Program-made: the position numbers and the translations under genes | The notes under the pieces: model-generated | What the model was told of the DNA's origin: nothing | What the model saw: the letters and a program-made list of their open reading frames with translations, nothing else | Databases searched by the model: none | Part shown: one piece after another, positions 11,665 through 31,744 of the stretch | Layout: each line of letters begins with the position of its first letter | Numbering within the stretch: the stretch's first letter is position 1 | NCBI RefSeq assembly: GCF_016127575.1 | Contig: NZ_CP066020.1 | Coordinates: 150,001 to 182,000, forward strand | From: Cupriavidus necator | Lineage (GTDB): Bacteria > Pseudomonadota > Gammaproteobacteria > Burkholderiales > Burkholderiaceae | DNA: 32,000 nucleotides | Direction: 5' to 3'

Positions 11665-12459
11665 GCGCCGCCAGCCTCCCAGCCCTGGTTCAGCGCTTCT
11701 TCACCCAGCGCCTGCTCGAGCAGCAAGGTCTGAGTTCGCATACGGTGGCAAGTTACCGTGACACGTTCCGGCTGCTGCTGGCGTTCGCCACTAAGCATAT
11801 CGGGCGCGCGCCGTCAAAGCTCCGAATCGAGGACTTCGACGTGTCGTTGATCGAGGAATTCCTGCAGCACCTCGAACACGGCAGAGGCAATTCTGTGCGC
11901 ACACGCAACACGCGGCTTGCCGCCGTGCATGCCTTCTTCCGGTTCGTCGCAGTCAGCGAGCCTGCGTTGTTTCTGCAGTGTCAGCGCATTCTTGCAATCC
12001 CATCCAAACGCTGCGAGCACGGCCCAGTTGAGTTTCTGACCGAGAGCGAGGCCGCCGCTCTGGTAGGGGCGCCTGACGTACGAAACTGGATCGGCAACCG
12101 CGACCGAACGCTGCTTCTTGTAGCGGTTCAAACGGGTCTGCGCAATAGCGAATTGACCGCACTCCGGCGTCAGGATGTGACGCTCGGCACAGGCGCCCAC
12201 GTTCGTTGCCTTGGCAAAGGCAGAAAGATGAGATGCACTCCGCTGCGACCGGATGTAGTTGCCGTCCTGAAACAGTGGCTGCTGTATCAACCAGGCGAAC
12301 CAGGTGATCCGGTCTTCCCCAGTTCGCGCGGTGGTCATCTCAGTGCCGATGCTCTTCAGCGACTCGTTTCGCGCAACGCTGAGATCGCGCGCCTCTCGTG
12401 CCCCTCGCTGAAGAAGAAATCAATAACGCCTCATACGCTTCGGCACTATATGCCCTTCC
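11661..12459 (+). pseudogene. Tyrosine recombinase, RIT subunit C, 3'-truncated (outer copy L)
   Basis: Identity with copy R ends after ...SITPHTLRHYMPF at base 12459. The region carrying the catalytic Tyr is missing. The track ORF runs on to 12596 only by reading into the inner element. Confidence 0.85.
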
Positions 12460-12576
12460 CGACTATGTCTTGTAATCGAAAGATAGCTCTCTATTTCATG
12501 GGCAAACGGATGCACGGAGATAGAGATAGTCTTGACTCCTTCCTTCAGCCCCAGAGCATCCGGGAAGGAGTCCATC

Positions 12577-15751: not shown

Positions 15752-15849
15752 GGCCACGAAACTATGTCGGGTAGTGACGGGGGATGGCTCCACAACAAGT
15801 GCGCATCGGACGAGCACGGAGGCAAATCCCTCATTACCCGATATAGTCA

Positions 15850-16648
15850 GGAAGGGCATATAGTGCCGAAGCGTATGAGGCGTTATTGATTTCTTCTTCA
15901 GCGAGGGGCACGAGAGGCGCGCGATCTCAGCGTTGCGCGAAACGAGTCGCTGAAGAGCATCGGCACTGAGATGACCACCGCGCGAACTGGGGAAGACCGG
16001 ATCACCTGGTTCGCCTGGTTGATACAGCAGCCACTGTTTCAGGACGGCAACTACATCCGGTCGCAGCGGAGTGCATCTCATCTTTCTGCCTTTGCCAAGG
16101 CAACGAACGTGGGCGCCTGTGCCGAGCGTCACATCCTGACGCCGGAGTGCGGTCAATTCGCTATTGCGCAGACCCGTTTGAACCGCTACAAGAAGCAGCG
16201 TTCGGTCGCGGTTGCCGATCCAGTTTCGTACGTCAGGCGCCCCTACCAGAGCGGCGGCCTCGCTCTCGGTCAGAAACTCAACTGGGCCGTGCTCGCAGCG
16301 TTTGGATGGGATTGCAAGAATGCGCTGACACTGCAGAAACAACGCAGGCTCGCTGACTGCGACGAACCGGAAGAAGGCATGCACGGCGGCAAGCCGCGTG
16401 TTGCGTGTGCGCACAGAATTGCCTCTGCCGTGTTCGAGGTGCTGCAGGAATTCCTCGATCAACGACACGTCGAAGTCCTCGATTCGGAGCTTTGACGGCG
16501 CGCGCCCGATATGCTTAGTGGCGAACGCCAGCAGCAGCCGGAACGTGTCACGGTAACTTGCCACCGTATGCGAACTCAGACCTTGCTGCTCGAGCAGGCG
16601 CTGGGTGAAGAAGCGCTGAACCAGGGCTGGGAGGCTGGCGGCGCTCAC
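15850..16648 (-). pseudogene. Tyrosine recombinase, RIT subunit C, 3'-truncated (outer copy R)
   Basis: Same sequence as 11661..12459, ending ...HTLRHYMPF. The track ORF continues to 15485 only by reading into the inner element. Confidence 0.85.
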
Positions 16649-17592
16649 GGCCGTTCTCCCGGACAGTCCTTGTCGAGATAGGCTGCCGCGAGTTCAAGCA
16701 ACTCAGGAACCGCTTCGATGTACCAGTACGTAAGACCGATGTTGACATGCCCGAGGTAGGCGGCAAGTTTCGGCAGTTCTCGACTTACGTCCAGACCGGC
16801 GCGATACCATTCGACCAGCCTTCCCGTCGCGAAGCTATGCCGGAAGTCCTGGAGGCGCGGGCCGTAACCATCGCGCCCATCCTCTGTCGCCGATCGCAGA
16901 CCGACAGCGCGCGACATTCTGACGAACATGCTTCGTGCAGTTCCGGCCTTCAATCGCTTGCCGCGCTCACTAACCAGGAACGCCTCGCTCAATCGTGAAG
17001 GACAGAGTTGATCGCGTTTCTTGGCATAGTGTTCGAGTGCCACCCGGGTCGACTCTGCTACAGGAACAAAGCGCGATTTGCCGAACTTCGATTCCCGGAT
17101 GGAGAGTATCCCGCTGACGAGGTCAACGTCGGACCGGTCGAGCCGAAGCGCTTCGCCTGGCCTGAGGCCCGTCGCTACAAGAAGCCCGATGAGCGTCGAA
17201 TAGGTCAGTGCTCGCATGCCGGTTCGGGATCGCAGTTGAGCGGCGCGGGTCATAAGCAGATCAATTTCCTGCTCCGTGTAAATATGCGGGGCATTGCGCC
17301 GTCTGCGGGCACTCAGGAGTCCTGCTGGAGGAATCTGGTTTCGACCGTCAATGACGTTCATCCATCTGGCGAATCCTCTCACTTGAGAGAGGCGCCGCCC
17401 CCAGGTGGCGCGTTCGACGAGTGCGGGCGTCATCGCCCAGCGCAGAGCCAGATCGGTAGTAATGAACTCTGCGTCTTCATGTTCCAGAAGATCAACGAAA
17501 TGACCGAGTGCCAATGCAGGTTCATAGAATGATGCCCCGAGAGCGCGGCGGACCGCCACGTACCGAGCGAGGGAGTCACGGATCGAAGTCAT
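16645..17592 (-). CDS. Tyrosine recombinase, RIT subunit B (outer copy R)
   Basis: The translation is identical to 10717..11664. Confidence 0.9.
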   Translation of the reverse strand: MTSIRDSLARYVAVRRALGASFYEPALALGHFVDLLEHEDAEFITTDLALRWAMTPALVERATWGRRLSQVRGFARWMNVIDGRNQIPPAGLLSARRRRNAPHIYTEQEIDLLMTRAAQLRSRTGMRALTYSTLIGLLVATGLRPGEALRLDRSDVDLVSGILSIRESKFGKSRFVPVAESTRVALEHYAKKRDQLCPSRLSEAFLVSERGKRLKAGTARSMFVRMSRAVGLRSATEDGRDGYGPRLQDFRHSFATGRLVEWYRAGLDVSRELPKLAAYLGHVNIGLTYWYIEAVPELLELAAAYLDKDCPGERP

Positions 17593-18821
17593 ATTGCACC
17601 TCCCGCCGTGGGCCACGAGCGCGCGACCCCGCGCAGGTCCTCGAACGCGACCTTTGCATAGATCGCGGTACTGTCCGGTGAGCGGTGCCGCAAGACCTCA
17701 GCTATTTCTGCGATCGAGGCCCCGTGGCGAATCATCGTCGTCGCCAGACCGTGACGGAACAGATGTGCGGAACCACGGCACGCGGGGCGGAAACCTGCAC
17801 GTGCGAAGGCCTGACAAACAATCTTGCCAATCGCCGCCGGTCCCGCCAGACCAACCCGAGGTGCCAATCTACGAAGGAATACGTGCCGCGATGCACTTGC
17901 TCCGCGACCATCGCGGAGATATGTAGCGATTGCTGCTCCGACCTCCGATGGCAGGGGGACGTGCTCCACCATCTGCCCCTTGCCATGAACGACGAGTTCC
18001 CCCGAACGCCAGTGAATGTCGTCGAGCTGCATGGCAACTATTTCTCCGGCACGTAGACCGAGCCGCGCCAACAACAGCAGGATTGCGTAGTCACGGCGCC
18101 CAGTCGGAGTCGACCGGTCTGCGGACGCAATGAGAGCTTCTTGCTGCTCAGGCGTGAGGAACGTCGGTACAGTTGACTGTCGCCACTTACGAACTGACGG
18201 CACTGACTCATACAGGTCTCGGGCCGTATCGCCGCGCAGAAAGAGGAAATGGCAGAACGAGCGAAGCGCAACTGCCATCAGCCGCGTGTACTCCGCCGAT
18301 CGACCTTCGCTGTAGGTAAGGAAATGATCTCGGATCGTTACGGCGCAAAATGCATCTGCCAATATCGTTCCGTCGTTGGCCGAGTGGCTGTCGAGAAAGT
18401 CGCGAATGAAGGGGCCGTAGACGAGCAGCGAGTTCTTCGCGAGTCCACGATCCTGCCTCAGATGGTCCAGGTATCGGCGATAAATGCGCGCAATCTCGGA
18501 CTGGCCGCCCAACGTCGGCGAACACACAATGGCTTCCGCGCGCAGATAGGCAAGAAACTGCCGTAAGGTGGGACGCGCACGCTGGACGCGGTCTCTTGAA
18601 GCGTCGATCATGCGATTCATAAAACGAGCCGTGACAGACTCATCGAGATCGATCAGGTCAATGTTCCTGTTCTTCATCCACCCGGAGAACACGCACAGGA
18701 CTCTTCGTTTCTTGCGAAGCGATACCTCGGAATAGTGTGCCGTCCGTAGACGATCAAGAAATGCATCGATGTGATGGGCCGGCAGCCCGCCGGATTCGCT
18801 GACTGTGCGTGTTGCATTCAT
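17589..18821 (-). CDS. Tyrosine recombinase, RIT subunit A (outer copy R)
   Basis: The translation is identical to 9488..10720. Confidence 0.9.
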   Translation of the reverse strand: MNATRTVSESGGLPAHHIDAFLDRLRTAHYSEVSLRKKRRVLCVFSGWMKNRNIDLIDLDESVTARFMNRMIDASRDRVQRARPTLRQFLAYLRAEAIVCSPTLGGQSEIARIYRRYLDHLRQDRGLAKNSLLVYGPFIRDFLDSHSANDGTILADAFCAVTIRDHFLTYSEGRSAEYTRLMAVALRSFCHFLFLRGDTARDLYESVPSVRKWRQSTVPTFLTPEQQEALIASADRSTPTGRRDYAILLLLARLGLRAGEIVAMQLDDIHWRSGELVVHGKGQMVEHVPLPSEVGAAIATYLRDGRGASASRHVFLRRLAPRVGLAGPAAIGKIVCQAFARAGFRPACRGSAHLFRHGLATTMIRHGASIAEIAEVLRHRSPDSTAIYAKVAFEDLRGVARSWPTAGGAI

Positions 18822-18948
18822 CTGATCTCTCCTGGCCAGCGCATTAGCCAGCCTGAGACATCATATGTTTATGCCGACACAGCGATCATGAAAGGCCATA
18901 CCCACCGTCATGCGCGTGCACGACGCGGCATAATCGGGGAGCCGGCAT

Positions 18949-18984
18949 AACGCGGTTCATGCCGCTAGCGGCATGAACCGCGTT
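18949..18984. repeat. Perfect 36-bp palindrome at the right junction of the RIT composite
   Basis: AACGCGGTTCATGCCGC TA GCGGCATGAACCGCGTT, checked base by base and symmetric about 18966/18967. It spans the last 3 nt of the arm, 30 nt found only at this junction, and the first GTT of tnpC. Confidence 0.9.
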
Positions 18985-20334
18985 GTTCGAGATCGGCCAG
19001 GTTCCGTTCTCGATGTAGCGCACGAGCTTTGGCCACTGCCCATGCAGGTAGTGCAGCGCCTTGCCGAACAGGCTTTGCGGCAGTACGGTATGCAGGTGTT
19101 GCAGCAGCATCGTTTCGATCTCGGCCAGCAGCGGCTGGCTTTGTTCGGCGCGAACTTGCTGCCGTTGTTCCGGCCTCATCTCGAGCGTGTGGCGTTCGAT
19201 GGCAAACAGCTTGCCGATGCGCTGCAGGAATCCGGTGACCGTGTGGTCGGCGCGCTTGTCCTTGGGCAAGGCTTGCTCCGCCTCGACCAGGTAGCGCCGC
19301 GCGTGCGCCCAGCATCCGAGGTGCACCAACTGATAGGTGTTTGCGACGTCGTCGTATGGTGCATAGCCGTCGGTCATCAACACCGCCCCAGGCTTGATGC
19401 CGGCATAGAGAGCCGTAGCCTGCTTTGTCTCGCGTGTGGGGCTATAGGCAAACAACCGTACCGGCGGGCCCGTGCCATTCATCTGCGCCCATAGGAAGCT
19501 CTTTCTCTGGGCAGGCCTGCCGGGCTCCTTGAGCACCTGTACCGTTGTCTCATCACCGTACACGACGTCTGCTTCCAGCAGATGGTCACGCAGCAGGTTG
19601 ATGATTGGCTGCACCGCTTGGCCTACTCGCACTATGCTTGCGGCCAGGGTGCCGCGAGAGAGGTCCCCGCCGAAGCGATGCAGCAGCGCTGCCTGGCGGT
19701 ACAGCGGCAGGCCATCCTGATACTTCGAGGTGATGCACCAGGCCAGCGCCGATTCGGTAAGGAGTCCCTTGGGAATAATGCGTGCCGGTGCCGGCGTCGT
19801 CTTGATGCCGCCGTCGCAGCATGGGCAGGCGTACTTGACCCGCTGGTGCTGGATCACGCGGACCTGTTGCGGCACGATGTCGAGCTGTTCGCTGACCTCA
19901 ACGCCAATCTCGACCAGAGTCTGGCCATCGAGGGGGCAGACGCGTTCCGATTCGGGTAGTTCGTGACGAACCTCGACACGGGGCAGCGCCGGGTCGAGCG
20001 GCTTACGGCCACGCTTCTTGCGTGTGTGCCCGGCCACTTCGGTCTCGGGCGTACCTTCTTCTTCCTGCGCCGGCTGCGCGGCCGCTGCCGCCATGGCTTC
20101 GGCCTCATTGAGGAACAAGTCCTTCTGCTCCGAGCCTCGCGCCTCGCTCTTGGCGGCGAACAGCTTACGCTGGAACGCCTTGAGCTGTTCCAAGAGCAGG
20201 TCTCGCTGGACCGTCATCACACGCAGCTCGCCCTTGATTGCCTCGCGTTCCGCGAGTATTGCCTTGAGCTCGCGCTCGGCGTCTCGCAACAGTTGCAGCT
20301 CGGCGGCGGTAACGGTGACGGGCGTGGATGGCAT
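18982..20334 (-). pseudogene. tnpC: IS66-family transposase TnpC, N-terminal fragment (split gene)
   Basis: It starts MPSTPVTVTAAELQLLRDAERELKAIL (coiled coil), has Cys pairs VCPLDG...YACPCCDG, and runs on to ...YIENGTWPISNN. The track ORF tail (AVHAASGMNRVMPAPRL...) is read-through into the insertion. The 451 and 77 codons reconstitute a 528-aa TnpC. Confidence 0.85.
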
Positions 20335-20365
20335 GGCGGGTTAGACCGCTGCCGCCAAGCAGCGT

Positions 20366-20716
20366 TCACGCAGCGCGATGGTATTCTCGGTGCGGGTGCC
20401 GGCGCATCGCCTCGATGTCAATTCCCTCGAGCAGCCAGTGCAACTGTTCGACCGTCAGCGTGGCCACCGACGCCTCGCGTGGCCAAGCAAACCGGTCCGC
20501 CTCCAATCGCTTCAACAGTAGCCAGAAGCCGTTGTGATCCCAGCCGAGAATCTTGATGCGATCGGCCCGCTGGTTGCGGAACACAAATACAGCAGATGCA
20601 AACGGATCCAGCCCGAGCGCCTGCTCGACCAGCAGTGCCAGACCGTTGATGTTCTTACGGAAGTCCACAGCGTCGCGATGCAGGTACACCCGCAGCCCAG
20701 CGTCGAGGCGAAACAT
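20366..20716 (-). CDS. tnpB: IS66-family accessory protein TnpB (Orf2)
   Basis: The start is trimmed to ATG 20716. The product is 116 aa: MFRLDAGLRVYLHRDAVDFRKNINGLALLVEQ...VFVFRNQRADRIKILGWDHNGFWLLLKRLE, typical of IS66 Orf2. Confidence 0.85.
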   Translation of the reverse strand: MFRLDAGLRVYLHRDAVDFRKNINGLALLVEQALGLDPFASAVFVFRNQRADRIKILGWDHNGFWLLLKRLEADRFAWPREASVATLTVEQLHWLLEGIDIEAMRRHPHREYHRAA

Positions 20717-20753: not shown

Positions 20754-20791
20754 GGGGTAATCGTCCTTTTCTTGCAGATTGATACGGTTAT
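20754..20791 (+). repeat. Tn3-family left terminal inverted repeat
   Basis: GGGGTAATCGTCCTTTTCTTGCAGATTGATACGGTTAT. It matches the reverse complement of 24079..24116 at about 32/38 positions. Confidence 0.85.
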
Positions 20792-20907
20792 CAATCAGCC
20801 CAGAGTCCCTTGTTGGCGTGGCGTTGCAGCCCATTCGTTGACCTTATTGCGGCCATCCGAGCACTTGTCGTACAGTTTTGACCCGAACGACACCCCGAAA
20901 AGTGTAG

Positions 20908-23847
20908 ATGTCGGCATTTGCGTATCGCTACGTTGGCAGGGAAGAGTTGCCTGCCCGCTTGACAGAATTTGACCTACGGCAGTTTTTTCAGCTCACCAGT
21001 GCTGACATCGCGGCAATACGGGAGCGGTTTCGGGCCGACAGATACGCCGCGGTCGGCCTACAACTCGTTTGCCTCCGGGCCTTCGGTCGGCCGTTGGACC
21101 GGTTTGCTGCCGTTCCGCGAAATCTCCTTCAGTACGTGTGCGAAACTTTTTCCGTGCCGCTGTTGTCGATTGCCAGTCTGAAGACGCTGTACCAACGACG
21201 CCCGACGTTGTACGAGCATCAGCAATGGGTCAAGGAGCACCTTGGCATCAAGCCGTTCGATGACACCAGCCAGGCCGCTTTGCTGGAAATGCTCCGCGTG
21301 CAAGCTGCCGCAGCGGCAGACGTGGATGAGCTTGTCACCACCGCTCAGCGATGGCTCTACGATCGCTGCCGCCTCATTCCCGGCCAGCGCCAGATCACCG
21401 ACATGGCACGGCATGCATTTTCCGCCTACGAGGCGCAAATGCTCGCAGCGGTTAACCGCGCAGTGCCGGCGGCCACGCTGCAGCACTGCATGGAATCCGT
21501 CCGCAGTCCACGGGCTGACGGCTCTGCAACGCACCTCGAGTGGATCAAGGCGCCGTCCAGGCGCAACGGCCCCAAGAACCTCGCTGAAACGCTGGACAAG
21601 ATCCGCTACCTGAAGTCCCTCGCTGTGCACGAGTGGAATCTGGATGACATCGCTTTGCCCAAACTGCGTGCCTATGCGCAGAAGGTGCAAGCAAGGCGTC
21701 CGGCCAAGACCAAAGCACTGAAGGAGAGCACCCAGGCGCTTGAACTGGTGTGCTTTCTACGGATGAGTTTGCTGGAACTCACCGATATCGCGATGCACCA
21801 GACTAGCCGACGCAGCCAGGATCTGTTCCGACGCGCGGCCAGCACGGCGCAGTCGACGCACACCCGCTCCGCCGTGGAAGACAGGCAGCAGGCGCTCAAG
21901 GCCAAGGCCGTCCTGCAAGACAAGAGCAAGTCGACCGAGCAGCGAGTGGATGAAGCCCTGAAGCACCTTGCCGTCGTCACCGACGCGGCGCATTCGAGCT
22001 TTGCGTCACACGTGCGCGCGGCGCTGACCGGTGACCATCAGCGGATTCACGCTCTGCTGTCGGGCCTGGAAGGCCTGGAATTCGGCGGCAGGGAGGACGA
22101 TCCCGGCTTTGCGAACCTCAAGGCATGGCGCGACCTGCAGACAAGGAAGCTCAATGCTCTGCCAGAAGACTTTACCGAAAGCGGCGTTGGCACGGCGTGG
22201 CATGACCTCGTCCATGATCCTGACCCAAAGCGCGGCTATCAGGCCTTCTCTGCCTGCACGATGATGTCGCTACGAAATAGCCTGCGTCGGGGCAGCGTAT
22301 GGATTGACCACTCGATGCGCTTTCGTGATCGCGACCAAATGCTCATCCCTGCCAAGGAGTGGGAGCGCGACCGTGTCAAGTATCTCGGGCTATTGGGCCT
22401 GCCAGCCGCGGCTGATACCTACATCGAACAGCTACTGGATACGCTTCGTGCTGGCGTGGCTGCTGTGGCCGAGGCCACCGCTAACGGCAAGATCGAAATA
22501 GGAGACGATGGCATGCTTCACCTGCCGGCGATTGTGCCGCTGGAGCAGGACGATGAACCGCGCCGCACACGCGACTTGATCTACAAGACAATCGGCGATG
22601 TGCAATTGCCGGACCTATTGCTGGAGGTCGACGCCTCGACCAATTTCAGCGAGGTGCTGCTCGGGCACCGGGCGAAGTCCGTGCCCGAACTGCTGTCGAC
22701 CTACGCGGCGTTGCTCGCCCATGGCACCGAGATCGATGCCAAGGGCATTGCTGCGATGATTCCCGGCATCGACACCGCCCAGGTGTCACTTGCCATGCGA
22801 GGGCTGGAGACCCATGGCCGTTTGCGCCGGGCCAACGAGGTGGTGGCTGAATTTCAAGGAAAGATCCCATTAGCCACGAACTGGGGCACCGGGCAGAAGG
22901 CATCGGCCGACATGATGTCGCTGGACGTTTCACGACATCTGTGGATCGCTCGTGTTGATCCACGTCGACGCACCTACGCGACCGGCATCTACACCCACGT
23001 GCTCGATAAGTGGGGCATCGTCTATGACCAACCGATTGTCTTGAACGAGCGTCAGGCTGGGGTGGCCATCGAGGGCGTAGAGCAGCACAACCGCTGCGAG
23101 GACCGTATCCGCCTGTCGTTACTGGCAGTGGACACGCACGGCTACACGAACGCCGCGATGGCCTGGGCAAAGGGCTTGAGTTTCGATCTATGCCCGCGGC
23201 TGCGCGATCTGTCGGAGCGCAAACTGTATCTGCCTGCAGAGTTTAAAGTGCCAGAAGGGATCGAGCGTGTCACCACGAAGCGCTTGTCCTTGAGAGCCAT
23301 ACGCCTGGGTTGGGACGATTTCCTACGGGTGCTGGCATCGATCCGTATCGGCCGCATTAGCGCTGAGCTCGCCATGCAACGGTTGGGCAGCGCTGCCCGG
23401 ACCAACAGGGCACACAAAGCTGCCGAGCATCTCGGCCGGCTGTTGCGTAGCATCTTCCTGTGCGACTACGTGACCATTGAAGACTTCCGCCGCGAAATCC
23501 ATACGTTGCTCAGCCGAGGGGAGTCGGTGCACCAGTTGCAGCGCGCGATCCATGCTGGCCGGGTGCCACACGAACGCGGCCGGCGAGGCGATGAGATGAC
23601 GGCGATCTCGGGGGCGCACGCGCTTCTGACCAACATCGTTCTGGCGTGGAATACCCACCGCATGAACGATGTCGTCGAGCGACTTCGCAAGGGCGGCACG
23701 AACATCGAGGACGCTTGGCTGCGCCGCATGGGGCCGGGGCATTCCGGGCACATCAACTTCCGGGGGATCCTCAGCTTCGGTGTCGAGCGCTACATTGACG
23801 CGCTGATCCGAGGCAGTGGCGCAACAACCCGACGGGCTATGGCATAA
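20908..23847 (+). CDS. tnpA: Tn3-family DDE transposase
   Basis: 979 aa. The N-terminus (LTEFDLRQFFQLTSADIAAIRERFRADRYAAVGLQLVCLRAFGRPL) resembles the Tn3 TnpA N-terminal domain. The size and position between GGGG-type 38-bp inverted repeats fit the family. Confidence 0.9.
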   Translation: MSAFAYRYVGREELPARLTEFDLRQFFQLTSADIAAIRERFRADRYAAVGLQLVCLRAFGRPLDRFAAVPRNLLQYVCETFSVPLLSIASLKTLYQRRPTLYEHQQWVKEHLGIKPFDDTSQAALLEMLRVQAAAAADVDELVTTAQRWLYDRCRLIPGQRQITDMARHAFSAYEAQMLAAVNRAVPAATLQHCMESVRSPRADGSATHLEWIKAPSRRNGPKNLAETLDKIRYLKSLAVHEWNLDDIALPKLRAYAQKVQARRPAKTKALKESTQALELVCFLRMSLLELTDIAMHQTSRRSQDLFRRAASTAQSTHTRSAVEDRQQALKAKAVLQDKSKSTEQRVDEALKHLAVVTDAAHSSFASHVRAALTGDHQRIHALLSGLEGLEFGGREDDPGFANLKAWRDLQTRKLNALPEDFTESGVGTAWHDLVHDPDPKRGYQAFSACTMMSLRNSLRRGSVWIDHSMRFRDRDQMLIPAKEWERDRVKYLGLLGLPAAADTYIEQLLDTLRAGVAAVAEATANGKIEIGDDGMLHLPAIVPLEQDDEPRRTRDLIYKTIGDVQLPDLLLEVDASTNFSEVLLGHRAKSVPELLSTYAALLAHGTEIDAKGIAAMIPGIDTAQVSLAMRGLETHGRLRRANEVVAEFQGKIPLATNWGTGQKASADMMSLDVSRHLWIARVDPRRRTYATGIYTHVLDKWGIVYDQPIVLNERQAGVAIEGVEQHNRCEDRIRLSLLAVDTHGYTNAAMAWAKGLSFDLCPRLRDLSERKLYLPAEFKVPEGIERVTTKRLSLRAIRLGWDDFLRVLASIRIGRISAELAMQRLGSAARTNRAHKAAEHLGRLLRSIFLCDYVTIEDFRREIHTLLSRGESVHQLQRAIHAGRVPHERGRRGDEMTAISGAHALLTNIVLAWNTHRMNDVVERLRKGGTNIEDAWLRRMGPGHSGHINFRGILSFGVERYIDALIRGSGATTRRAMA

Positions 23848-24078
23848 CTGCCATCGAACGCCGCAGAGCAAAATCTGCCACAGATTGGCACACCGCAGTG
23901 GCTCGAGGCCGAAATACGGCAGTACCTTCGCAGCGGCAGCTACGACAGCAGCTTCGCAGGCCGGCCAGGCATACTGGCGAGACAGTGCCTGCCAACCGCG
24001 TACCAATCCGCAAAGAAAGGACGGTGCAGCGCGAAACGAAGAACCGCTAAGTCATTGTTCTAGAACGTCTTTTTAAGC

Positions 24079-24116
24079 CTGACCGTATCAATCTGCTGCA
24101 AAAGGACGATTACCCC
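24079..24116 (-). repeat. Tn3-family right terminal inverted repeat
   Basis: Its reverse complement reads GGGGTAATCGTCCTTTTGCAGCAGATTGATACGGTCAG. Confidence 0.85.
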
Positions 24117-24118
24117 AC

Positions 24119-24784
24119 GATGAGCAGGCGCGCAAAACGGTCATCAACCTGCGCGACCAGTTCAACAGCTTCCAGGACACGGCGACCCAGCGAATTGAGC
24201 AGAACAGCCGCACCACGCTCGACCTGCAGAACCAGCTCGAAGGTCTACGCCAGGAACTGGCGCGGCTACGCGGCCAGAACGAAGTGCTGCAGAACACGGT
24301 GGCGACGCTGCAGAAGCAGCAGAAGGACTACTACGCCGATCTGGATGCGCGCCTGAAGAAATTCGAGCCGCAGCACGCTTCGGTCGAAGACCGCCAAGGC
24401 ACGTCGCAGCCGGGCGAGAAGCCCGAATACGATGCCGCGCTCAAGCATTTCCAGGCGGGCGACTTCAAGAGCGCCGGGAATGCGTTCTCGTCGTTTATCA
24501 AGAAGTATCCGCAGAGCCCGTACCTGCCGCTGGCCCAGTACTGGCTCGGCAACTCGCTCTACGCGCAGCGCGACTATAAGGGGTCCACCTGGGTGCTGCA
24601 CAAAATGATCGATGCCAACCCGAGGCATCCCAAAGTGCCGGACGCCATGATCGCGGTGGCCAATAATCAGCTCGAGTCCGGCCAGAAGGCTGCCGGGCGC
24701 GAAACGCTGGAACAGGTGGTGGCCAAGTATCCCGGTACCGAAGGCGCGCGTGCGGCGGACAACCGGTTGAAGACGCTGAAGTGA
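24119..24784 (+). pseudogene. cpoB: Tol-Pal system protein CpoB/YbgF, 5'-truncated by the Tn3-family element
   Basis: The frame is open from the inverted-repeat boundary: DEQARKTVINLRDQFNSFQDTATQRIEQNSRTTLDLQNQLEGLRQELARLRGQNEVLQNTVATLQKQQKDYYADLDARLKKFEP (coiled coil). A TPR-like C-terminus follows (YDAALKHFQAGDFKSAGNAFSSFIKKYPQSPYLPLAQYWLGNSLY...). The signal peptide and start codon are absent. Confidence 0.75.
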
Positions 24785-24789
24785 GCGGG

Positions 24790-24808
24790 GCGGCTTCCAG
24801 CAAGCCGC
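24790..24808 (+). terminator. Hairpin just after the cpoB stop (no U-tract)
   Basis: GCGGCTT CCAGC AAGCCGC, a 7-bp stem that starts 6 nt after TGA 24782..24784. Confidence 0.3.
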
Positions 24809-25147
24809 ACCACGCGCCGAAGGCCTGCTTTAGGTGGATTTTCAGATTCTTACGAACCCTACATTTTCCGGAGTGTGGGGTCTACGATGACCCTGAAAAG
24901 GTCCTGCCGGCTGGCTATACGGGGGGATCGTGCTTTCGCTGCAAAATGATACGCCTGCGCACGAAATTCTCGTTTGAAATCAACAATTTGCACACAACGA
25001 CTTTCCCACGAAAAGCTCTGTGCATAACTCGTTGATACAGAACGGTTTTCTTGCTGAAACCGTGGCAATCAGCACCGAAAGCACGATAACCCCTTATTGG
25101 GGGTACGATCGCTGGTCGGCGGCTACGCCCGGTTTGTGGAGCACTTG

Positions 25148-25906
25148 ATGGCGACCTTTGACGATCTGATGGATGATGCTGCCCTGCGTGGCAAGCTGCT
25201 TCTCGCGATGAGGAAGGCGCTCGTCGCTAGATTCGAAAAACTGGATTGGATTGACCTTGGATTCGAGCATGAAATTGGCATTAAGCAACGGATCCTTCAG
25301 GGTAGCCAGTTCAAGAGTAATGACGACTATCCCGATCTTGTGCATGACTTGCTGGTGCGCTTGTATAGCGAGAAGCCCGCGGTGCTGAAAGCGCTGGTGC
25401 TGCATCCGCGCTTGCAGTCGGCCATCGAGGCCGATGTGCCACAGGTGGTTGCGGCCGTGAGCGGGACGCCCCATGTCACTGTGGCGGCCGCAGACGCTGA
25501 GTCGTCGAGCGAGATCGTGGTGCGCGCGCTGCGCGACGCGGAAACACTGATTCGGTCCGGTGGCGGCGCCGAGAGCGCTGTCGACCGGCTGCATACCGCC
25601 CTGCATGGCTATCTTCGCCACGTCTGTTCGGAAGCGGGCTTGTCTTATGCGGACGGTGCGACCATCGGCGACCTCTTCAAGCTTCTCCGGGAACGGCATC
25701 CGGCGTTTGCGAACGACGGCCCGCACAAGAAGGAGGTCGATCGCATCCGGCGTGGCATGGGCCAGATCCTCGACACGCTTGGGACGCTGCGTAACCATGC
25801 CAGCATGGCGCATCCCACAGAGGCGCTGCTGGCGCGCGTGGACGCGGAGTTGACGCTAAATGCTGCGCGCACCGTCTTTAACTATATCGCGGCCACGATC
25901 GCGTGA
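25148..25906 (+). CDS. Abi_C / HEPN-like abortive-infection domain protein, paralogue 1
   Basis: The start is trimmed to ATG 25148 (GGAG 6 nt upstream). The C-terminal half, AVDRLHTALHGYLRHVC...LFKLLRERHPAF...LGTLRNHASMAHPTEALL...NAARTVFNYI, carries the RNxxSxAH (R-x6-H) HEPN-type motif that I associate with Pfam Abi_C. Confidence 0.75.
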   Translation: MATFDDLMDDAALRGKLLLAMRKALVARFEKLDWIDLGFEHEIGIKQRILQGSQFKSNDDYPDLVHDLLVRLYSEKPAVLKALVLHPRLQSAIEADVPQVVAAVSGTPHVTVAAADAESSSEIVVRALRDAETLIRSGGGAESAVDRLHTALHGYLRHVCSEAGLSYADGATIGDLFKLLRERHPAFANDGPHKKEVDRIRRGMGQILDTLGTLRNHASMAHPTEALLARVDAELTLNAARTVFNYIAATIA

Positions 25907-25953
25907 CGTCACCCGGCCTGTACCGCACCAGTATGCGGAGCCACATTCGCGCT

Positions 25954-25992
25954 GGCGCGCGGTGGGTGGGGTTGGTTCAGGTAGGTTCTGGG
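25954..25992 (+). repeat. GGCGCGC plus G/T-rich junction repeat, copy a
   Basis: GGCGCGCGGTGGGTGGGGTTGGTTCAGGTAGGTTCTGGG. The first 24 nt match copy c at 20/24 positions. Confidence 0.7.
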
Positions 25993-26033
25993 CGCCGCCA
26001 TGCCCAGTAAATGGATAACAATTCAGGGAAGAT

Positions 26034-26804
26034 ATGTTCTTGGCACTTGAAAAGCTGTTGGGGGACGATGCGAAGCGCAACAAGGCCTTTGCAACCTTTG
26101 CAAAGGTACTCGAAAGGCGGTTCTCGGAATCGGACTGGGCCAGTTTCGGGCACGAGCACAACATTGAGGAGATCTATGGCAACGACCATCTCCTGCGGTC
26201 GGCCCAGTACGGGAACTCGGACTATAGGCTGTGCATCTTGCGAACGCTCGAATTCCTTTTCGATGACTACGCCAAGGCGCTCAAGGCGTTGCTGACCGAT
26301 GCGTCGTTGCACAACACGCTCAAACGAGAGGACCCGGATCTCTACGCCATTGTGACGGATGAAGAGGTCCCGCATGTCCCCGCGAAGAAGCCACGCCGTT
26401 CGAAGCTGGAGGTGGTCAGGAAGGCTTTGCATGATGCGGAGACGCTGCTCGCATCCGGTGGCCCCACGAGTGCCGTGGATCGGGTGCATACGGCGCTCCA
26501 CGGCTACCTCAGGGAGGTCTGCGACAAGGCCAAGCTCTCGTACGGGGCGCAGCCGACAGTGACCGAGCTCTACAAGCTGATCCGCACGGAGCACCCGGCT
26601 TTCGATGCAAAGGGCACCCATGCCGAGGCGATCAAGAAGGTTGCTAACGGTATGGCCAGTACGCTCGATGGGCTGAATACGTTGCGCAATCAGGCCAGCG
26701 TCGCGCATCCGAACGAAGATCTGCTGGACGATGTCGATGCGGGACTTGCCGTGAATGCCGCGCGCACTGTATTCAACTACGTGGCCGGTAAGGTCGGCGA
26801 CTGA
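26034..26804 (+). CDS. Abi_C / HEPN-like abortive-infection domain protein, paralogue 2
   Basis: 256 aa. The C-terminal half, AVDRVHTALHGYLREVC...LYKLIRTEHPAF...LNTLRNQASVAHPNEDLL...NAARTVFNYV, is collinear with paralogue 1. The N-terminal halves have diverged. Confidence 0.75.
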   Translation: MFLALEKLLGDDAKRNKAFATFAKVLERRFSESDWASFGHEHNIEEIYGNDHLLRSAQYGNSDYRLCILRTLEFLFDDYAKALKALLTDASLHNTLKREDPDLYAIVTDEEVPHVPAKKPRRSKLEVVRKALHDAETLLASGGPTSAVDRVHTALHGYLREVCDKAKLSYGAQPTVTELYKLIRTEHPAFDAKGTHAEAIKKVANGMASTLDGLNTLRNQASVAHPNEDLLDDVDAGLAVNAARTVFNYVAGKVGD

Positions 26805-26848
26805 AGAGCCTTCTAGTGTGCAAAAAAGCCGGCGGGGCAGGGGATCTC

Positions 26849-26914
26849 GGCGCGCGGTGCGAGTCCAGCCGTGGCCGGCTGGGGTGGGTTGGGGTTGGTT
26901 GCTGGTTGGTTGGG
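26849..26914 (+). repeat. GGCGCGC plus G/T-rich junction repeat, copy b (split by about 21 nt)
   Basis: GGCGCGCGGTG ... GGGGTGGGTTGGGGTTGGTTGCTGGTTGGTTGGG. It is followed by the hairpin AATGCC-N17-GGCATT and a TTTTT run (26915..26946). Confidence 0.65.
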
Positions 26915-27046
26915 AATGCCGGCGAGTGGTCCCGGAAGGCATTTTTGAGGGACCGTGGAAGGTGAGGGGAAGCGAGATGGATCTCGTGAGCGAGAGTCCG
27001 TCTGGCGAGGGGGCGACCTGACGGCGCGCCGGGCAATTGGGCGCGT

Positions 27047-27080
27047 GGCGCGCCGTGGGTTAGGTTGGTGTGGCTGGTTG
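27047..27080 (+). repeat. GGCGCGC plus G/T-rich junction repeat, copy c
   Basis: GGCGCGCCGTGGGTTAGGTTGGTGTGGCTGGTTG. Its GGCGCGCCG can pair with CGGCGCGCC at 27022..27030 (9-bp stem, 16-nt loop). Confidence 0.7.
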
Positions 27081-27136
27081 AGACACCACGCTCGTCCAGC
27101 GTATTTACGGCTTCAGGAATAGCGAGATCGGCACGC

Positions 27137-28069
27137 ATGGAGATACAGACCATTAGCACGCAAGACGGCGTCACGCGGATCGATCGACGCGATTCCGAGC
27201 CGAGGATCCGTTTTTCACCGTTCCATGGCGATACCAATGCCGAGGCGTCCGAGCGGCGTGCGGCTGCCATCTTCGGCCCGGTGGAGATTTGTGACCCGTG
27301 GACGAGTGCGCCGCCGTCGCCGGAGCAGATCGCCCGCATTGTGGTCCTTCATGGCGTCTATCGGCCTCCCAAGACGTTTCTTCCGTCCTCGCCATTCCAG
27401 CTCGTGCCATCCGAGTTTTTGCGGGTCGCCAAGCAGCGGCCACCCCGGCAGCCGGGGGCGTCCGCCTCCGCGTTTGCGCAATGGATCTACTCGCTCTACG
27501 CCAGTAGCGAGGGCAGTGACGATGACCGCGAGAGCGGTCTGGCGGCGGAGCCCGAGATTCTCGCTTTCCGGCATCGCGCCTTGCGCCTTGTTGATGCCGA
27601 CTATCTGCACCAGCAGCACGCGGCGTGGGAACTCGCGCATTGTGGCCTGCACCACGGCGCTGACACGATGGTGTCTTACTTCCATCTCGATGACCTGCGG
27701 GTCAACGGGGAACCGTTGCGCGCGTCCCCCGATCTCGTGTATCGCCACAAGACGACCGGTGAGGTGATCGTGGTGGAGATCAAAATGTCGAGGATGGCCA
27801 TTCCGAGCAACCTGTGGCCCAACGTCTGGGGCCAGCTGTGGTGCTACGCGCAGCTGCCGGTGGTGCGCGCAGCCAGTCGGGTGACCGTCGTCGGCGAAGT
27901 ATGGGCGGAGCGATCCGAGCATTCGCGCGGGCAGGGTGACGATTGGCAGCGTTTGCCGCCGTATCTCTACCTGCGGGCCTCTGTGCGCCGCGATCCGCGC
28001 GAGGCGGTCTACGATCGCTTCTTCCGGGCGCTCTTTGACATTTATCGAGGCGCTGGCGGCGGGCGATGA
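27137..28069 (+). CDS. RecB/Cas4-like PD-(D/E)XK nuclease-domain protein with an uncharacterised N-terminal half
   Basis: The track ORF starts at TTG 27065; the first ATG is 27137 and the true start is uncertain. The C-terminal region reads SPDLVYRHKTTGEVIVVEIKMS...NVWGQLWCYAQL, giving D...E-x-K plus the QxxxY motif of the RecB nuclease family. The antisense ORF 27215..27922 is R/H/P-rich shadow. Confidence 0.65.
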   Translation: MEIQTISTQDGVTRIDRRDSEPRIRFSPFHGDTNAEASERRAAAIFGPVEICDPWTSAPPSPEQIARIVVLHGVYRPPKTFLPSSPFQLVPSEFLRVAKQRPPRQPGASASAFAQWIYSLYASSEGSDDDRESGLAAEPEILAFRHRALRLVDADYLHQQHAAWELAHCGLHHGADTMVSYFHLDDLRVNGEPLRASPDLVYRHKTTGEVIVVEIKMSRMAIPSNLWPNVWGQLWCYAQLPVVRAASRVTVVGEVWAERSEHSRGQGDDWQRLPPYLYLRASVRRDPREAVYDRFFRALFDIYRGAGGGR

Positions 28070-28323
28070 TCTCGCGCCTTTATCGGCGATGGGGCGGCCA
28101 CTGACAATTCAGGGATGGGGAATCGGCACGAATGGAGACACCAATCACTATTTCGCGTGGTGGGCTTACGCGGACCTAGGGGTCATCGTACCTTTGGTGC
28201 GAAATCTGGTGCTTGGAAGCTGGAAAGCTGCTTGCCGCAAGGCTTTCCAGATTACTTCGCGCCGCCCGTGAGGATCGAACTCAAGATCCCTTGACCCCAC
28301 CGCCCACGGGTGGGACGCGTTCA

Positions 28324-28361
28324 TTTCAATTCGTCCTTCTCGAGCAGATTGATACGTTGTT
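28324..28361 (+). repeat. Degenerate third copy of the Tn3-family terminal inverted repeat (lacks the GGGG tip)
   Basis: TCGTCCTTCTCGAGCAGATTGATACG (28331..28356) matches the reverse complement of the right repeat at 24/27 positions, including an exact 14-mer AGCAGATTGATACG. It matches the left repeat at 23/27. Its orientation is that of the left repeat. Confidence 0.6.
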
Positions 28362-28617
28362 GCTCCAAAAACGCTTGTGATTCAAGAGCTTGCAGAAGAA
28401 GCAATTTCTCAAGCGAAGCGAACCGGAAAGCCTTGCTGGAAGCAGCTTCCCATGGACCGTTACATTTTGCACGTTTCGAACGTTTACCCCTGATGCGGGG
28501 ACGTCTCTGGTGATCACCGCCGCGCAACACCGCCCAACCGATGCTCCCGTTCTCCGCACAGTGTAGCGACGCCCTTATGCGATCATGTGCCCTTTACCGT
28601 CAGTCCCCCATTTGTCA

Positions 28618-30333
28618 ATGACTCGCTTGCGCAAAATCGAGATCCGCCACTTTCGCGGCATCCAGCATTTCACCTGGTGGCCGGGCCCTGGCCTCAACGC
28701 GTTGATCGGACCTGGTGACGCGGGCAAGTCGAGCATTCTTGACGCCATCGATCTGTGCCTGGGCGCGCGGCGCACCGCGCAATTCGGCGACCATGATTTT
28801 TTCCGCATGAATGTCGACCAACCCATCGTGATCGAGATTACCGTGGGCGAGCTCGACGACGCGCTCAAGAACTTTGAGGCGTATGGCCTGTACTTGCGCG
28901 GCTTCCGGGCGGAGGACGGCGCCGTGCTCGAGGAGCCTGACGCGCACTGCGAGACGGTGCTGACGATTCGACTGACGGTCCAAAGCGACTTGGAGCCGCA
29001 ATGGCAGTTGATTTCCGAGCGCGCTGCGGCGCAGGGGCTGACCCGGCACCTGGCCTGGGCCGACCGGCTTCGGATCGCGCCTGGCTGGCTCGGCGCAAGT
29101 GGTGATCAGAACCTGAGCTGGCGCCGCGGCTCGGTGCTGAACCGGCTTTCCGACGAAAGAGCGGATGCGTCGGCGGCGTTGGTGCGCGCCGGACGCGACG
29201 CGCGCCTGCGCTTCGGTGATGAGGCTCAGAATCAATTGGGGCAAGCGCTGCAGCAGGTGCTGGCCACTGCCACCGAGCTCGGTGTGCCAGTCGGTGGCGA
29301 GGTCAAGGCGTTGCTGGATGCCCACGCCATTTCGGTGACGGGCGGCGCGATTGCGCTGCACGACGCCGCAGGCGTGCCGCTGAGATCCCTAGGGCTCGGC
29401 TCGGGCCGATTGCTGGTGGCCGGACTGCAACGGGCCGCCGCAATGGAGACCTCAGTGGTGCTAGTCGACGAGATTGAGACCGGACTAGAGCCGCATCGAA
29501 TCTACAGGTTGCTCGTTACCCTGGGGGCCAAGGAACCGGCACCGCCGCTACAGGTGTTTCTGACCACCCATTCGCCCGTGGTGGTGCGCGAACTCTCGGG
29601 CGCGCAACTCTACGTGCTGAGGCAACGCGATGGCGTGCATGTCGCGCATTGCTGCGGAACCAGCGACGACGTGCAGGGCACGATGCGCCGACACCCGGAA
29701 GCGCTGCTGGGAAAAAGCGTCATGGTGTGCGAAGGCGCAAGCGAAGTTGGCCTGGTGCGCGGACTGGACCAGTATTGGTCTGGCTCGCCTTCCATCTCGA
29801 CGTTCGGCGTGGTCCTGGTCGACGGCTCTGGATCGTCCGCCGTGCAACGCGCCATGGCGTTCCAAGCGCTCGGCTACCGGGTGGCGCTCTTGCGGGACAG
29901 TGATGTGCCGCCCAAGGTGGACGAGGTGAGTTTCAAGGCGGCCGGGGGAGAGGTATTTGCTTGGCGTCAGCCGAATGCGCTGGAAGACGAGCTGTTTCAA
30001 TCCCTGGCCATCGAATCTGTCACCCAGCTTTGGCAACTGGCCAAAGAGAAGAAGGGGGAGGATCTGGTTGACGCGCACCTCCGGTCAGCGAGCGGGAACA
30101 AACTCACTTTGCCCGAAATCGAGAAGCAGCTGTATGTGGATAGGGTGATCACTAATGAAGCGCGGCTCGCTCTCGGCCAGGCCTCACGCAATAGCAAGAA
30201 TCCCTGGTTTAAGAGCGTTACGGCCATGGAGGAAGTTGGCTTCACAATTGTCGGGCCAGGGTTCGAGAGCGCTGAGCCCGCCTTTGGCACTGAGGTGGCT
30301 AAACTGTTCCAGTGGTGTCACCACCATGGCTAA
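28618..30333 (+). CDS. gajA: OLD-family ATPase + Toprim nuclease (GajA-like)
   Basis: The start is trimmed to ATG 28618 (MTRLRKIEIRHFRGI). Walker A is GPGDAGKSSILDAI and Walker B is VVLVDEIETGLEP. The C-terminal Toprim signatures are VMVCEGASEVGLV (Glu) and LLRDSD (DxD). The product is about 571 aa. Confidence 0.8.
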   Translation: MTRLRKIEIRHFRGIQHFTWWPGPGLNALIGPGDAGKSSILDAIDLCLGARRTAQFGDHDFFRMNVDQPIVIEITVGELDDALKNFEAYGLYLRGFRAEDGAVLEEPDAHCETVLTIRLTVQSDLEPQWQLISERAAAQGLTRHLAWADRLRIAPGWLGASGDQNLSWRRGSVLNRLSDERADASAALVRAGRDARLRFGDEAQNQLGQALQQVLATATELGVPVGGEVKALLDAHAISVTGGAIALHDAAGVPLRSLGLGSGRLLVAGLQRAAAMETSVVLVDEIETGLEPHRIYRLLVTLGAKEPAPPLQVFLTTHSPVVVRELSGAQLYVLRQRDGVHVAHCCGTSDDVQGTMRRHPEALLGKSVMVCEGASEVGLVRGLDQYWSGSPSISTFGVVLVDGSGSSAVQRAMAFQALGYRVALLRDSDVPPKVDEVSFKAAGGEVFAWRQPNALEDELFQSLAIESVTQLWQLAKEKKGEDLVDAHLRSASGNKLTLPEIEKQLYVDRVITNEARLALGQASRNSKNPWFKSVTAMEEVGFTIVGPGFESAEPAFGTEVAKLFQWCHHHG

Positions 30334-31744
30334 TTATGACCTTGACCTTCTTGAACTAGCCGGCGCGCGGGTAGAAGCGCCGGCCGGTTGCGGCAAGACG
30401 CAGATGCTGACGAATGCCCTAATGCGTCACGGGCAATCCAAGCCGATCTTGTTGCTCACCCACACCAACGCGGGCGTGGCCGCGCTGCGCAAACGTCTTG
30501 AGCATGCTCGGGTGGACCCGAGCCGATACCGGCTCGGGACTGTGGATGGCTGGGCGATGAAGCTGGTCGCGACGTTCCCGGCGCGCGCGGGCATCGACCC
30601 GGCGCTCCTTGCCGCCCTACGGCCCGACTACAACGCCATCCGCGAGGCCGCGGCACGGCTGCTGGCGGGAGGTCACGTGGGCGACGTGCTGGCGTCGAGC
30701 TACGCGCGCCTCTGGGTCGATGAATACCAGGATTGCTCGGTCCGCCAGCACGCCATTATTCAGGCGGCTTCGGCATTTCTGCCAACCTGTGTTGTCGGGG
30801 ATCCGTTGCAGGCAATCTTCGGTTTCGGCGGCGATCCGCTGGCATCGTGGCAGGACGACGTGTGTCGACATTTCCCGAGGCTCTTCACGCTCGATCGACC
30901 TTGGCGCTGGATCAATGCCGGTGCAGAGGTCCTCGGTCAGTGGCTTTTGCAGGCGCGCCAGGTCTTGCTGAATCGGCAGCCGATCAACTTGGCGAGCGCG
31001 CCCCCCGCCGTGCAATGGGTGCAGCTCGATGGTTCGGCTGGGGATCACGCTCGCCTTCTCCAGGCAGCTGGCACCGCGGCGCCGCATCGGGACGGCACGG
31101 TACTCGTTATCGGCGACAGTACCAGTCCTCAGAGCCAGCAACGGATGGCAAGTCTTGTGCCGGGAGCCGTCACGGTCGAAGCCGTGGACTTGCGCGACTT
31201 GGTTGACTTCGCGACCGGTTTGCAGCTGGCAGCTCCGGAGGCGCTCAGGCGCGTCGTCGAATTCTGCGGCCGGCTGATGACCGGGGTCGGCGTTGCCGCA
31301 CTGCTGGAGCGAGTGGAAATCCTGCGGCGCGGCACAGCACGGCGAGAACCGAGCCTGGCCGAAGCCGCCGCGCTAGCGTTCGAAGCCGAACGCTCGCTAC
31401 CCGCCGTCAAGCGGCTCATTGAGGCAGTTCGCCAGCAGCCGGGGACACGAGTCTTTCGCCCTATTGTGCTGCGCGCCTGCTTGACTGCGCTCGACACCTC
31501 TAGTACAGGCGGCACGACGCTGCAGGAAGCCGCGATTCGGATTCGCGAGCAGGGCCGCATGCAAGCGAGAGCGCTGCCACGGCGGGCGGTGGGTAGCACG
31601 CTGTTGCTAAAAGGACTGGAGGCACACGTCGCGGTCGTTCTCGCTGCGGACACCTTGAACGCGTCAAACCTTTATGTCGCCCTGACGCGGGGCTCGACCC
31701 AACTGGTGGTGTGCTCACGCACTCCGCAACTGCTGGGACGTTGA
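30326..31744 (+). CDS. gajB: UvrD-like superfamily-1 helicase (GajB-like)
   Basis: The start is trimmed to ATG 30326 (MANYDLDLL), overlapping the gajA stop by 8 nt (ATGGCTAA). Helicase motifs are APAGCGKTQ (Walker A), WVDEYQD (motif II), VVGDPLQAIFGFGG (motif III) and YVALTRGSTQLVV (motif VI). The product is 472 aa. Confidence 0.8.
   Translation: MANYDLDLLELAGARVEAPAGCGKTQMLTNALMRHGQSKPILLLTHTNAGVAALRKRLEHARVDPSRYRLGTVDGWAMKLVATFPARAGIDPALLAALRPDYNAIREAAARLLAGGHVGDVLASSYARLWVDEYQDCSVRQHAIIQAASAFLPTCVVGDPLQAIFGFGGDPLASWQDDVCRHFPRLFTLDRPWRWINAGAEVLGQWLLQARQVLLNRQPINLASAPPAVQWVQLDGSAGDHARLLQAAGTAAPHRDGTVLVIGDSTSPQSQQRMASLVPGAVTVEAVDLRDLVDFATGLQLAAPEALRRVVEFCGRLMTGVGVAALLERVEILRRGTARREPSLAEAAALAFEAERSLPAVKRLIEAVRQQPGTRVFRPIVLRACLTALDTSSTGGTTLQEAAIRIREQGRMQARALPRRAVGSTLLLKGLEAHVAVVLAADTLNASNLYVALTRGSTQLVVCSRTPQLLGR

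Follow-up and report, generated by a model that had tools for sequence, protein, structure and literature searches.

The architecture in which an AbiJ-NTD5 domain is joined to an AbiJ-HEPN domain was defined in 2013 by Anantharaman et al.; in their proposal the C-terminal domain is a suicidal RNase held back by the N-terminal domain, which would detect a phage component (PMC3710099). The lactococcal AbiJ is a single-gene abortive infection (Abi) system whose mechanism is not yet established (PMC13064643). Abi_C proteins of Staphylococcus aureus, including SadR, have been reported as defence RNases; in the survey of that paper the NTD5 type was rare, making up 13 of 2,815 Abi_C proteins (PMC13590631). 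Here we describe a locus in a 32,000-nucleotide stretch of Cupriavidus necator DNA (assembly GCF_016127575.1, contig NZ_CP066020.1, positions 150,001 to 182,000; hereafter the window), where two genes assigned to this family, AbiJ1 and AbiJ2, are followed by a gene for a predicted nuclease (gene 3) and then by a Gabija pair. The segment 24785–28580 is 100% identical to the megaplasmid pHG1 of C. necator H16 (NC_005241.1). An initial annotation of the window had read AbiJ1, AbiJ2 and gene 3 as one uncharacterised defence module. We consider instead, with good confidence, that independent modules (two AbiJ proteins, an unnamed nuclease and Gabija) have come to lie side by side in a mobile-element-rich patch of pHG1, and that they are not one operon-type system.

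The RefSeq gene calls coincide exactly with those of the initial annotation, all on the + strand, so its description of three same-strand genes upstream of an OLD/UvrD pair stands. AbiJ1 (25148–25906, 252 amino acids) and AbiJ2 (26040–26804, 254 amino acids, with an alternative ATG at 26034) are both named ‘abortive infection family protein’ by RefSeq; gene 3 (27137–28069, 310 amino acids) is a ‘hypothetical protein’. Downstream lie GajA (28618–30333, ‘ATP-binding protein’) and GajB (30326–31744, ‘UvrD-helicase domain-containing protein’), also on the + strand, which overlap by 8 nt. The remaining spacers are 133 bp between AbiJ1 and AbiJ2, 332 bp between AbiJ2 and gene 3 and 548 bp between gene 3 and GajA, and these lengths argue against one tight operon. 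A promoter and terminator scan was uninformative for transcription units: it returned no sigma-70-like site and a single terminator-like site (within AbiJ1, below chance). The Gabija-like neighbour proved to be a genuine Gabija system, with an OLD-family ATPase-nuclease (GajA) and a UvrD-like helicase (GajB). The region 28618–31744 matches the models end to end, the PADLOC matches being E 5.9e-224 over positions 1–569 of 570 for GajA and E 3.5e-176 over positions 4–467 of 471 for GajB. It is a separate two-gene system downstream. When PADLOC was run on the window as the initial annotation had advised, the AbiJ model also matched AbiJ1 and AbiJ2 (E 6.8e-6 and 7.6e-8), in the C-terminal half of the proteins only, and nothing matched gene 3.

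Co-localisation of the genes in other genomes was searched from three starting points: gene 3, AbiJ and GajA. From gene 3, 15 genome loci were taken together with 8 kb of sequence to either side where the contig allowed (four were shorter on one or both sides). Genes at the loci comprised the called genes together with those from a laxer open reading frame (ORF) filter, because calling based on third-position GC missed island genes with low values. By tblastn, AbiJ, GajA and GajB are absent from all 15 of these loci, and five further distinct gene-3 loci likewise have none of them. The gene-3 relative of Paraburkholderia tropica stands alone between opposite-strand housekeeping genes, that of a Pseudoroseomonas (annotated as Roseomonas sp. 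M0104) comes after an integrase, and that of a Sphingomonas adjoins a prophage. Another Cupriavidus carries its relative among hypothetical genes; on Burkholderia and Variovorax plasmids the gene is solitary, beside opposite-strand genes or a transposase. Among the 63 ORFs neighbouring gene-3 relatives there is no recurrent partner. The commonest family is phage integrase (four ORFs), and Abi_C does not appear among the 25 commonest Pfam families. No cas genes were found in the gene-3 neighbourhoods examined. A UvrD helicase near the Cupriavidus gene-3 relative (locus L025) was considered as a conserved partner and rejected: it gave only generic helicase-motif matches, and its neighbours had no PADLOC match.

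From the AbiJ side, relatives occur on 113 other plasmids with one copy on each. The three closest occur as single copies, and no gene-3 relative lies near them. A Comamonas relative has opposite-strand genes on its flanks, and the locus on an Escherichia coli IncI/K plasmid contains neither a second AbiJ gene nor a gene-3 relative. Across 82 metagenome and viral AbiJ loci (513 kb) there was no gene-3 relative and no tandem pair; a single locus (L112) has two adjacent AbiJ-like matches, which look like one frameshift-split gene. GajA relatives were found on 292 other plasmids. Two GajA/GajB relatives were inspected; both have other genes upstream, with no AbiJ or gene-3 relative, and the three genes studied here are not part of Gabija. 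A DUF3800 gene adjoins the AbiJ-NTD5 gene of the E. coli IncI/K plasmid (L033, 5918–7051), and in a Ralstonia integrative element one directly precedes the GajA relative (L038, 3909–4964); genes of this family may recur as neighbours within defence islands.

These neighbourhoods bear directly on the proposal that the three genes constitute one new defence system, an RNase pair with a DNase, possibly as Gabija accessories. The genes are contiguous, on the same strand and beside Gabija, and both AbiJ2 and gene 3 are preceded by a leader repeat (see below). However, the three do not co-occur at the other loci examined from any of the three starting points, relatives of each are solitary, and the spacers are long. 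At no other locus examined are homologues of the three-gene module co-localised, the very observation on which the initial annotation had staked its proposal, and the idea of one system thus fails; we regard it as highly unlikely. A candidate three-gene system is thereby removed, adjacency in one defence-rich plasmid segment not being evidence of a system.

The two HEPN proteins were assigned from their domains. AbiJ1 matches Pfam AbiJ_NTD5 (PF18865) with 71.2 bits (cut-off 26.7) at about 25178–25441 and Abi_C (PF14355) with 57.6 bits (cut-off 24), its Abi_C/HEPN domain spanning about 25679–25888. The corresponding values for AbiJ2 are 85.5 bits (cut-off 26.7) at about 26067–26336 and 61.5 bits (cut-off 24) with the Abi_C/HEPN domain at about 26574–26783. 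The HEPN motif reads RNHASMAH in AbiJ1 (25790–25813) and RNQASVAH in AbiJ2 (26685–26708). In an alignment of 32 sequences the RNxxSxAH positions R215, N216, S219 and H222 (AbiJ1 numbering) are invariant, as is a DRxHTAxHGY block upstream of them. The earlier recognition of two Abi_C/HEPN proteins with this motif is therefore borne out. As both domains score above the Pfam cut-offs and stand in a known architecture, the HEPN proteins do not form an unnamed class, and we assign AbiJ1 and AbiJ2 by sequence as further members of the named AbiJ-NTD5 plus AbiJ-HEPN family. Of the three genes, only gene 3 belongs to a family without a name or a model.

AbiJ1 and AbiJ2 share their domain order and R-x6-H motif with the AbiJ (Abi-859) family, the prototype of which is the E. 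coli plasmid protein w0043 (PMC3710099). Like other members they are plasmid-borne, and their relatives are solitary genes. Unlike them, pHG1 has two diverged tandem copies, seen nowhere else among the loci examined; the proteins are only 30–36% identical to the enterobacterial members, and the copies here carry a Cupriavidus-specific G/T-rich leader. SadR and the other S. aureus Abi_C RNases have the Abi_C HEPN domain in common with AbiJ1 and AbiJ2 but differ in the N-terminal domain (PMC13590631). Each of AbiJ1 and AbiJ2 is probably a self-contained abortive-infection protein. By analogy with work on the family (PMC3710099, PMC13590631), AbiJ-NTD5 would sense a phage component and keep the enzyme in check, and an Abi_C/HEPN dimer with its R-x6-H site would cut RNA and so halt growth of the infected cell.

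The two proteins are about 43–44% identical to one another, whereas the identity of AbiJ1 to two proteins encoded on other plasmids, P0122 and P0123, is 50–52%. A neighbour-joining tree likewise places AbiJ1 with P0122 and P0123, apart from AbiJ2. Since AbiJ1 is nearer to these proteins than to AbiJ2, the pair did not arise by recent duplication in place. HEPN enzymes function as dimers whose active sites span both subunits. From this general knowledge of the superfamily one could propose that AbiJ1 and AbiJ2, being tandem paralogues that share the invariant RNxxSxAH catalytic positions and are separated by a 133-bp spacer, form an obligate heterodimeric RNase to which gene 3 is unrelated. Yet the tandem pair occurs nowhere else among about 200 loci, the family is evidently single-gene, and the closer relatives of AbiJ1 are single-copy proteins of other plasmids. 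We consider an obligate heterodimer very improbable.

The repeat that precedes AbiJ2 and gene 3 was examined at the same loci. The 24-nt sequence TGGCGCGCSGTGGGTKRGGTTGGT has two matches in the window, where none is expected by chance. Copy 1 (25953–25976, + strand), consisting of GGCGCGC and then a G/T-rich tract, is upstream of AbiJ2; copy 2 (27046–27069, + strand) is 68 nt upstream of the gene-3 start. The spacer between AbiJ2 and gene 3 also holds a degenerate, G/T-rich copy (26874–26900, + strand) that is 74% identical to copy 1 and corresponds to block 1 of the AbiJ-type leader. Repeats had been described at each gene junction; they are real at AbiJ1/AbiJ2 and AbiJ2/gene 3, but neither the region ahead of AbiJ1 nor the gene 3/GajA spacer has one, so that two of the four junctions carry them. 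Homologous blocks are found directly upstream of the AbiJ genes at L026, L027 and L029, in one to three copies, of which the last is just before the ribosome-binding site, and nowhere else in the flanks of these loci. The presence of the same blocks ahead of AbiJ at these three loci identifies the repeat as an AbiJ-associated Cupriavidus leader, and not as the mark of cassette assembly for which it had been taken. The alternative of a dispersed plasmid repeat was discarded, there being no PLSDB matches outside pHG1.

The leader extends to the gene-3 side of the locus. Positions 26837–26923 align to L029 6719–6805 (80% over 89 nt), and the 332-bp gene-3 spacer runs colinear with the one that precedes AbiJ at that locus. 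Gene 3 thus lies behind a spacer homologous to the Cupriavidus AbiJ leader, in the position where an AbiJ gene is expected. The leader is made up of the palindrome GGCGCGCC and runs of two to four G spaced by T. It covers 25949–25990, 26860–26920 and 27039–27080 in the window, 6650–7000 in L026, 960–1350 in L027 and 6719–6990 in L029, and in the last of these four GGG tracts stand just ahead of the ribosome-binding site. Such a composition could suit a G-quadruplex-forming leader or an array of operators. When the three spacers were folded, the z-scores were 0.17, −1.5 and −1.4, none of them significant, which gives no evidence for a structured leader RNA. Together with the protein comparisons, these data show that the rare NTD5-type AbiJ proteins include a Cupriavidus clade whose genes share a conserved G/T-rich leader.

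Gene 3 has no profile match in Pfam or NCBIfam (E ≤ 0.1), PADLOC or PHROGs, and a sequence search of the PDB with both gene-3 family profiles returned nothing below E 0.28. Relatives number 249 at E ≤ 0.001 in a 90%-identity collection (all 120 listed have E < 1e-63) and 406 clusters at E ≤ 1e-3 in a 50%-identity library; they are mostly from alpha- and betaproteobacteria. The motifs of a PD-(D/E)XK nuclease are present as PD at 27728–27733 (D199, 27731–27733), E214-x-K216 at 27776–27784 and Q233xxxY237 (QLWCY) at 27833–27847. All five residues (D199, E214, K216, Q233 and Y237) are invariant among the closer relatives. At about 25% identity (43 sequences) there is still no variation at D199, K216, Q233 and Y237, and E214 is conserved to at least 90%. 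Weak matches to PDDEXK_1 and to VRR_NUC, each in three of the 43 distant relatives, have E values of about 2e-3 and are below cut-off.

Family conservation begins at about residue 85, leaving some 85 N-terminal residues as a variable part; the nuclease domain comprises approximately residues 85–310 (about 27389–28066). The initial annotation had assigned the N-terminal half, roughly 200 residues, to a possible sensor, a division that cannot be kept as both the conservation and the alignment with Cas4 start near residue 85. AlphaFold2 (AF2) gave models with a mean confidence (pLDDT) of 80 for full-length gene 3 and 85.5 for residues 85–310 alone. In the models the motifs occupy the strands and helix expected of a restriction-endonuclease-like fold: D199 precedes or begins a strand, ExK is within the strand after it, and QxxxY is in the helix that comes next. 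Foldseek with the full-length model gave the Cas4-family protein ACE1, AddB, Exo5 and MGME1 as top PDB matches. With residues 85–310 the best match was Cas4 SSO0001 (4ic1), at a probability of 0.99–1.0 over the whole length, followed by ACE1, AdnA, AddB and MGME1. The viral library BFVD contributed 16 matches at E ≤ 1e-3, the named ones being Cas4, PD-(D/E)XK or related exonucleases.

On the strength of the motifs and the model, gene 3 is predicted to be a stand-alone Cas4/RecB-like PD-(D/E)XK nuclease of an unnamed family. The earlier assignment to a RecB-like protein with D, ExK and QxxxY motifs is upheld by the family-invariant residues and the Foldseek match to Cas4. Confirmation by profile, which had been anticipated for both enzyme types, was obtained for the HEPN domains with Pfam Abi_C; the PD-(D/E)XK domain has no curated profile match and draws its support from structure and motifs. 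Gene 3 shares the D...ExK...QxxxY order with Cas4 SSO0001 (4ic1), the Argonaute-associated ACE1 (9iab), AddB, AdnA, MGME1 and Exo5, and its whole 226-residue domain aligns to full-length Cas4. Unlike Cas4, it lacks the four-cysteine iron–sulphur cluster, C236 being the only invariant cysteine in the family and a four-cysteine site being therefore absent, and it has no CRISPR, Argonaute or helicase partner. It further differs from the Cas4/RecB nucleases in having no sequence-level Pfam or PDB match and in the RraB-like N-terminal domain of many of its relatives. This domain (PF06877) was found in 13 of 33 sampled relatives (about 40%), which are roughly 400 residues long and include P0017, P0020, P0027, P0038, P0057, P0070 and P0072. 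Its presence accounts for the misnaming of some relatives as ‘ribonuclease E inhibitor RraB’. The RraB-like domain may regulate the nucleases that carry it; a search of the literature on RraB fusions found nothing relevant.

As to function, gene 3 would be a solitary, metal-dependent nuclease without the iron–sulphur cysteines of Cas4 and unrelated to its neighbours, its most likely activity being the degradation of DNA ends or flaps. It could serve in defence, in repair or in element maintenance. A repair, recombination or element-maintenance nuclease with no part in defence would agree with the structural relatives (Cas4, AddB, AdnA, MGME1 and Exo5 are end-processing enzymes) and with the surroundings of gene-3 relatives, which are found among housekeeping genes or near integrases and have no known defence genes beside them. 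Set against this, the family is patchy and solitary, tends toward lower third-position GC than adjacent host genes and lies beside integrases, transposases and prophages, features typical of conflict genes; many relatives have the extra N-terminal domain. Moreover, no relative was detected in phage genomes by tblastn, with no match in PHROGs, or on viral contigs. A role outside defence is thus possible, though we think it somewhat unlikely, and our best guess is that gene 3 is an element-borne conflict or defence nuclease. The more elaborate suggestion is of an undescribed stand-alone conflict or defence nuclease family of about 400 clusters, with a Cas4-like fold devoid of the iron–sulphur cluster, an RraB-like domain that in many members could serve as sensor or auto-inhibitor and, in pHG1, perhaps induction with AbiJ2 behind an AbiJ-type leader; this is tentative, and as a whole unlikely. 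What the locus retains of novelty is this uncharacterised nuclease family, moderately large, unnamed and Cas4-like, whose members annotation pipelines label ‘hypothetical’ or ‘RNase E inhibitor RraB’.

Several observations weigh against our reading of the locus as independent modules. The leader repeat common to AbiJ2 and gene 3 could reflect shared regulation in pHG1, and co-transcription or functional coupling of the three genes in pHG1 itself is possible. The co-occurrence sample for gene 3 amounts to about 25 loci of a family of about 400 clusters, and a rare conserved pairing could have gone unnoticed. At the loci outside pHG1, no known defence gene adjoins a gene-3 relative, so that the argument for a defence role comes from the pHG1 neighbourhood alone. 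The Foldseek TM-scores are modest (0.34–0.47), the fold call leaning on the probability and on the invariant motifs. Given these scores and the absence of a curated profile, we class gene 3 as ‘Cas4/RecB-like PD-(D/E)XK fold, unnamed family’ and not as Cas4.

On our reading, local rearrangement brought the modules together. The block lies between two Tn3-type miniature elements and beside an insertion sequence. The latter, IS882 (20754–24116, + strand), is of the Tn3 family, with tnpA at 20908–23847 and no passenger genes. Its transposase matches Pfam DDE_Tnp_Tn3 at E 1e-111 and is named ‘Tn3-like element IS882 family transposase’ by RefSeq; the 35-nt inverted repeats (20754–20788 and 24082–24116) are 91% identical. 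Element A (24921–25093) is a non-coding miniature element of 173 bp on the left flank of the block. Its GGGG-initiated ends agree with the IS882 inverted repeat at 25 and 27 of the 35 nt, a long hairpin is predicted for its sequence (z = −4.6), and copies with 81–92% identity occupy unannotated spacers of six other Cupriavidus replicons. Element B (28324–28490), of 167 bp, forms the right flank between gene 3 and GajA. It has Tn3-type inverted repeats, the left outer end being degenerate, and a wider inverted repeat is present at 28221–28452; its copies have 72–89% identity and are found in six Cupriavidus replicons, with at most five per record. Rfam gave no match at gathering score in the whole window and none at E ≤ 1 in 24700–28700; the flanking hairpins are thus not known RNAs.

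Elements A and B look like the Tn3-derived miniature elements (TIMEs) described previously (PMC4133298). In common with TIMEs they are about 170 bp long, non-coding and multicopy in the genus, and have GGGG-initiated repeats related to a resident Tn3-family element. They depart from TIMEs in having no target-site duplication and in differing from each other; movement of the genes that they enclose is putative. Composites of such elements (TIME-COMPs) are documented (PMC4133298, PMC13367494), and AbiJ1, AbiJ2 and gene 3 might accordingly be cargo of a non-autonomous composite transposon with A and B as its ends and the IS882 transposase acting in trans, which would explain their co-location with no functional link. 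The IS882-like repeats of A and B are oriented with the outer GGGG ends pointing away from the block (at 24921 and 28490), and IS882 is 800 bp away. There is, however, no 5-bp target-site duplication, either around element A (TATAC/TTATT) or around the composite (TATAC/TGATG). A and B are moreover different elements, the left end of B is degenerate, and other copies of the two do not flank AbiJ or gene-3 genes. We judge a composite transposon improbable. Our preferred reading, of modules brought together locally, still allows a possible mobilisation route for such genes, suggested by the proximity of Tn3-type miniature elements to an active-looking IS882.

Two further observations concern these elements. 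In C. pinatubonensis p2 one copy of element A (L036, 6336–6489) is separated by about 70 bp from an IS110-family transposase gene downstream of it, which may reflect a preferred insertion target or coincidence. A solo IS882-like end is also present in pHG1 at the window-equivalent 36035–36069 (L001, 23251–23285).

The surroundings of the block contain additional genes. A 5′-truncated ybgF/cpoB-like ORF (24284–24784) follows the right end of IS882 and precedes element A; it has a partial TolA-binding trimerisation domain and TPR repeats. The PLSDB gene table has no entry for this ORF, which is probably a pseudogene fragment. Further upstream, 9488–18821 contains three successive sets of three tyrosine-recombinase ORFs, two sets on the + strand and one on the − strand; they resemble ‘recombinase in trio’ elements, a comparison based solely on the ORF list and the names given by RefSeq. 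They are followed by an IS66-family element at about 18886–20716. Past the window end, downstream of Gabija in pHG1 (L001, 20591–22227), come a HipA-family kinase gene and a hypothetical gene, and further on an H-NS-like gene and another IS66 element, so that the conflict-gene cluster runs beyond the end of the window.

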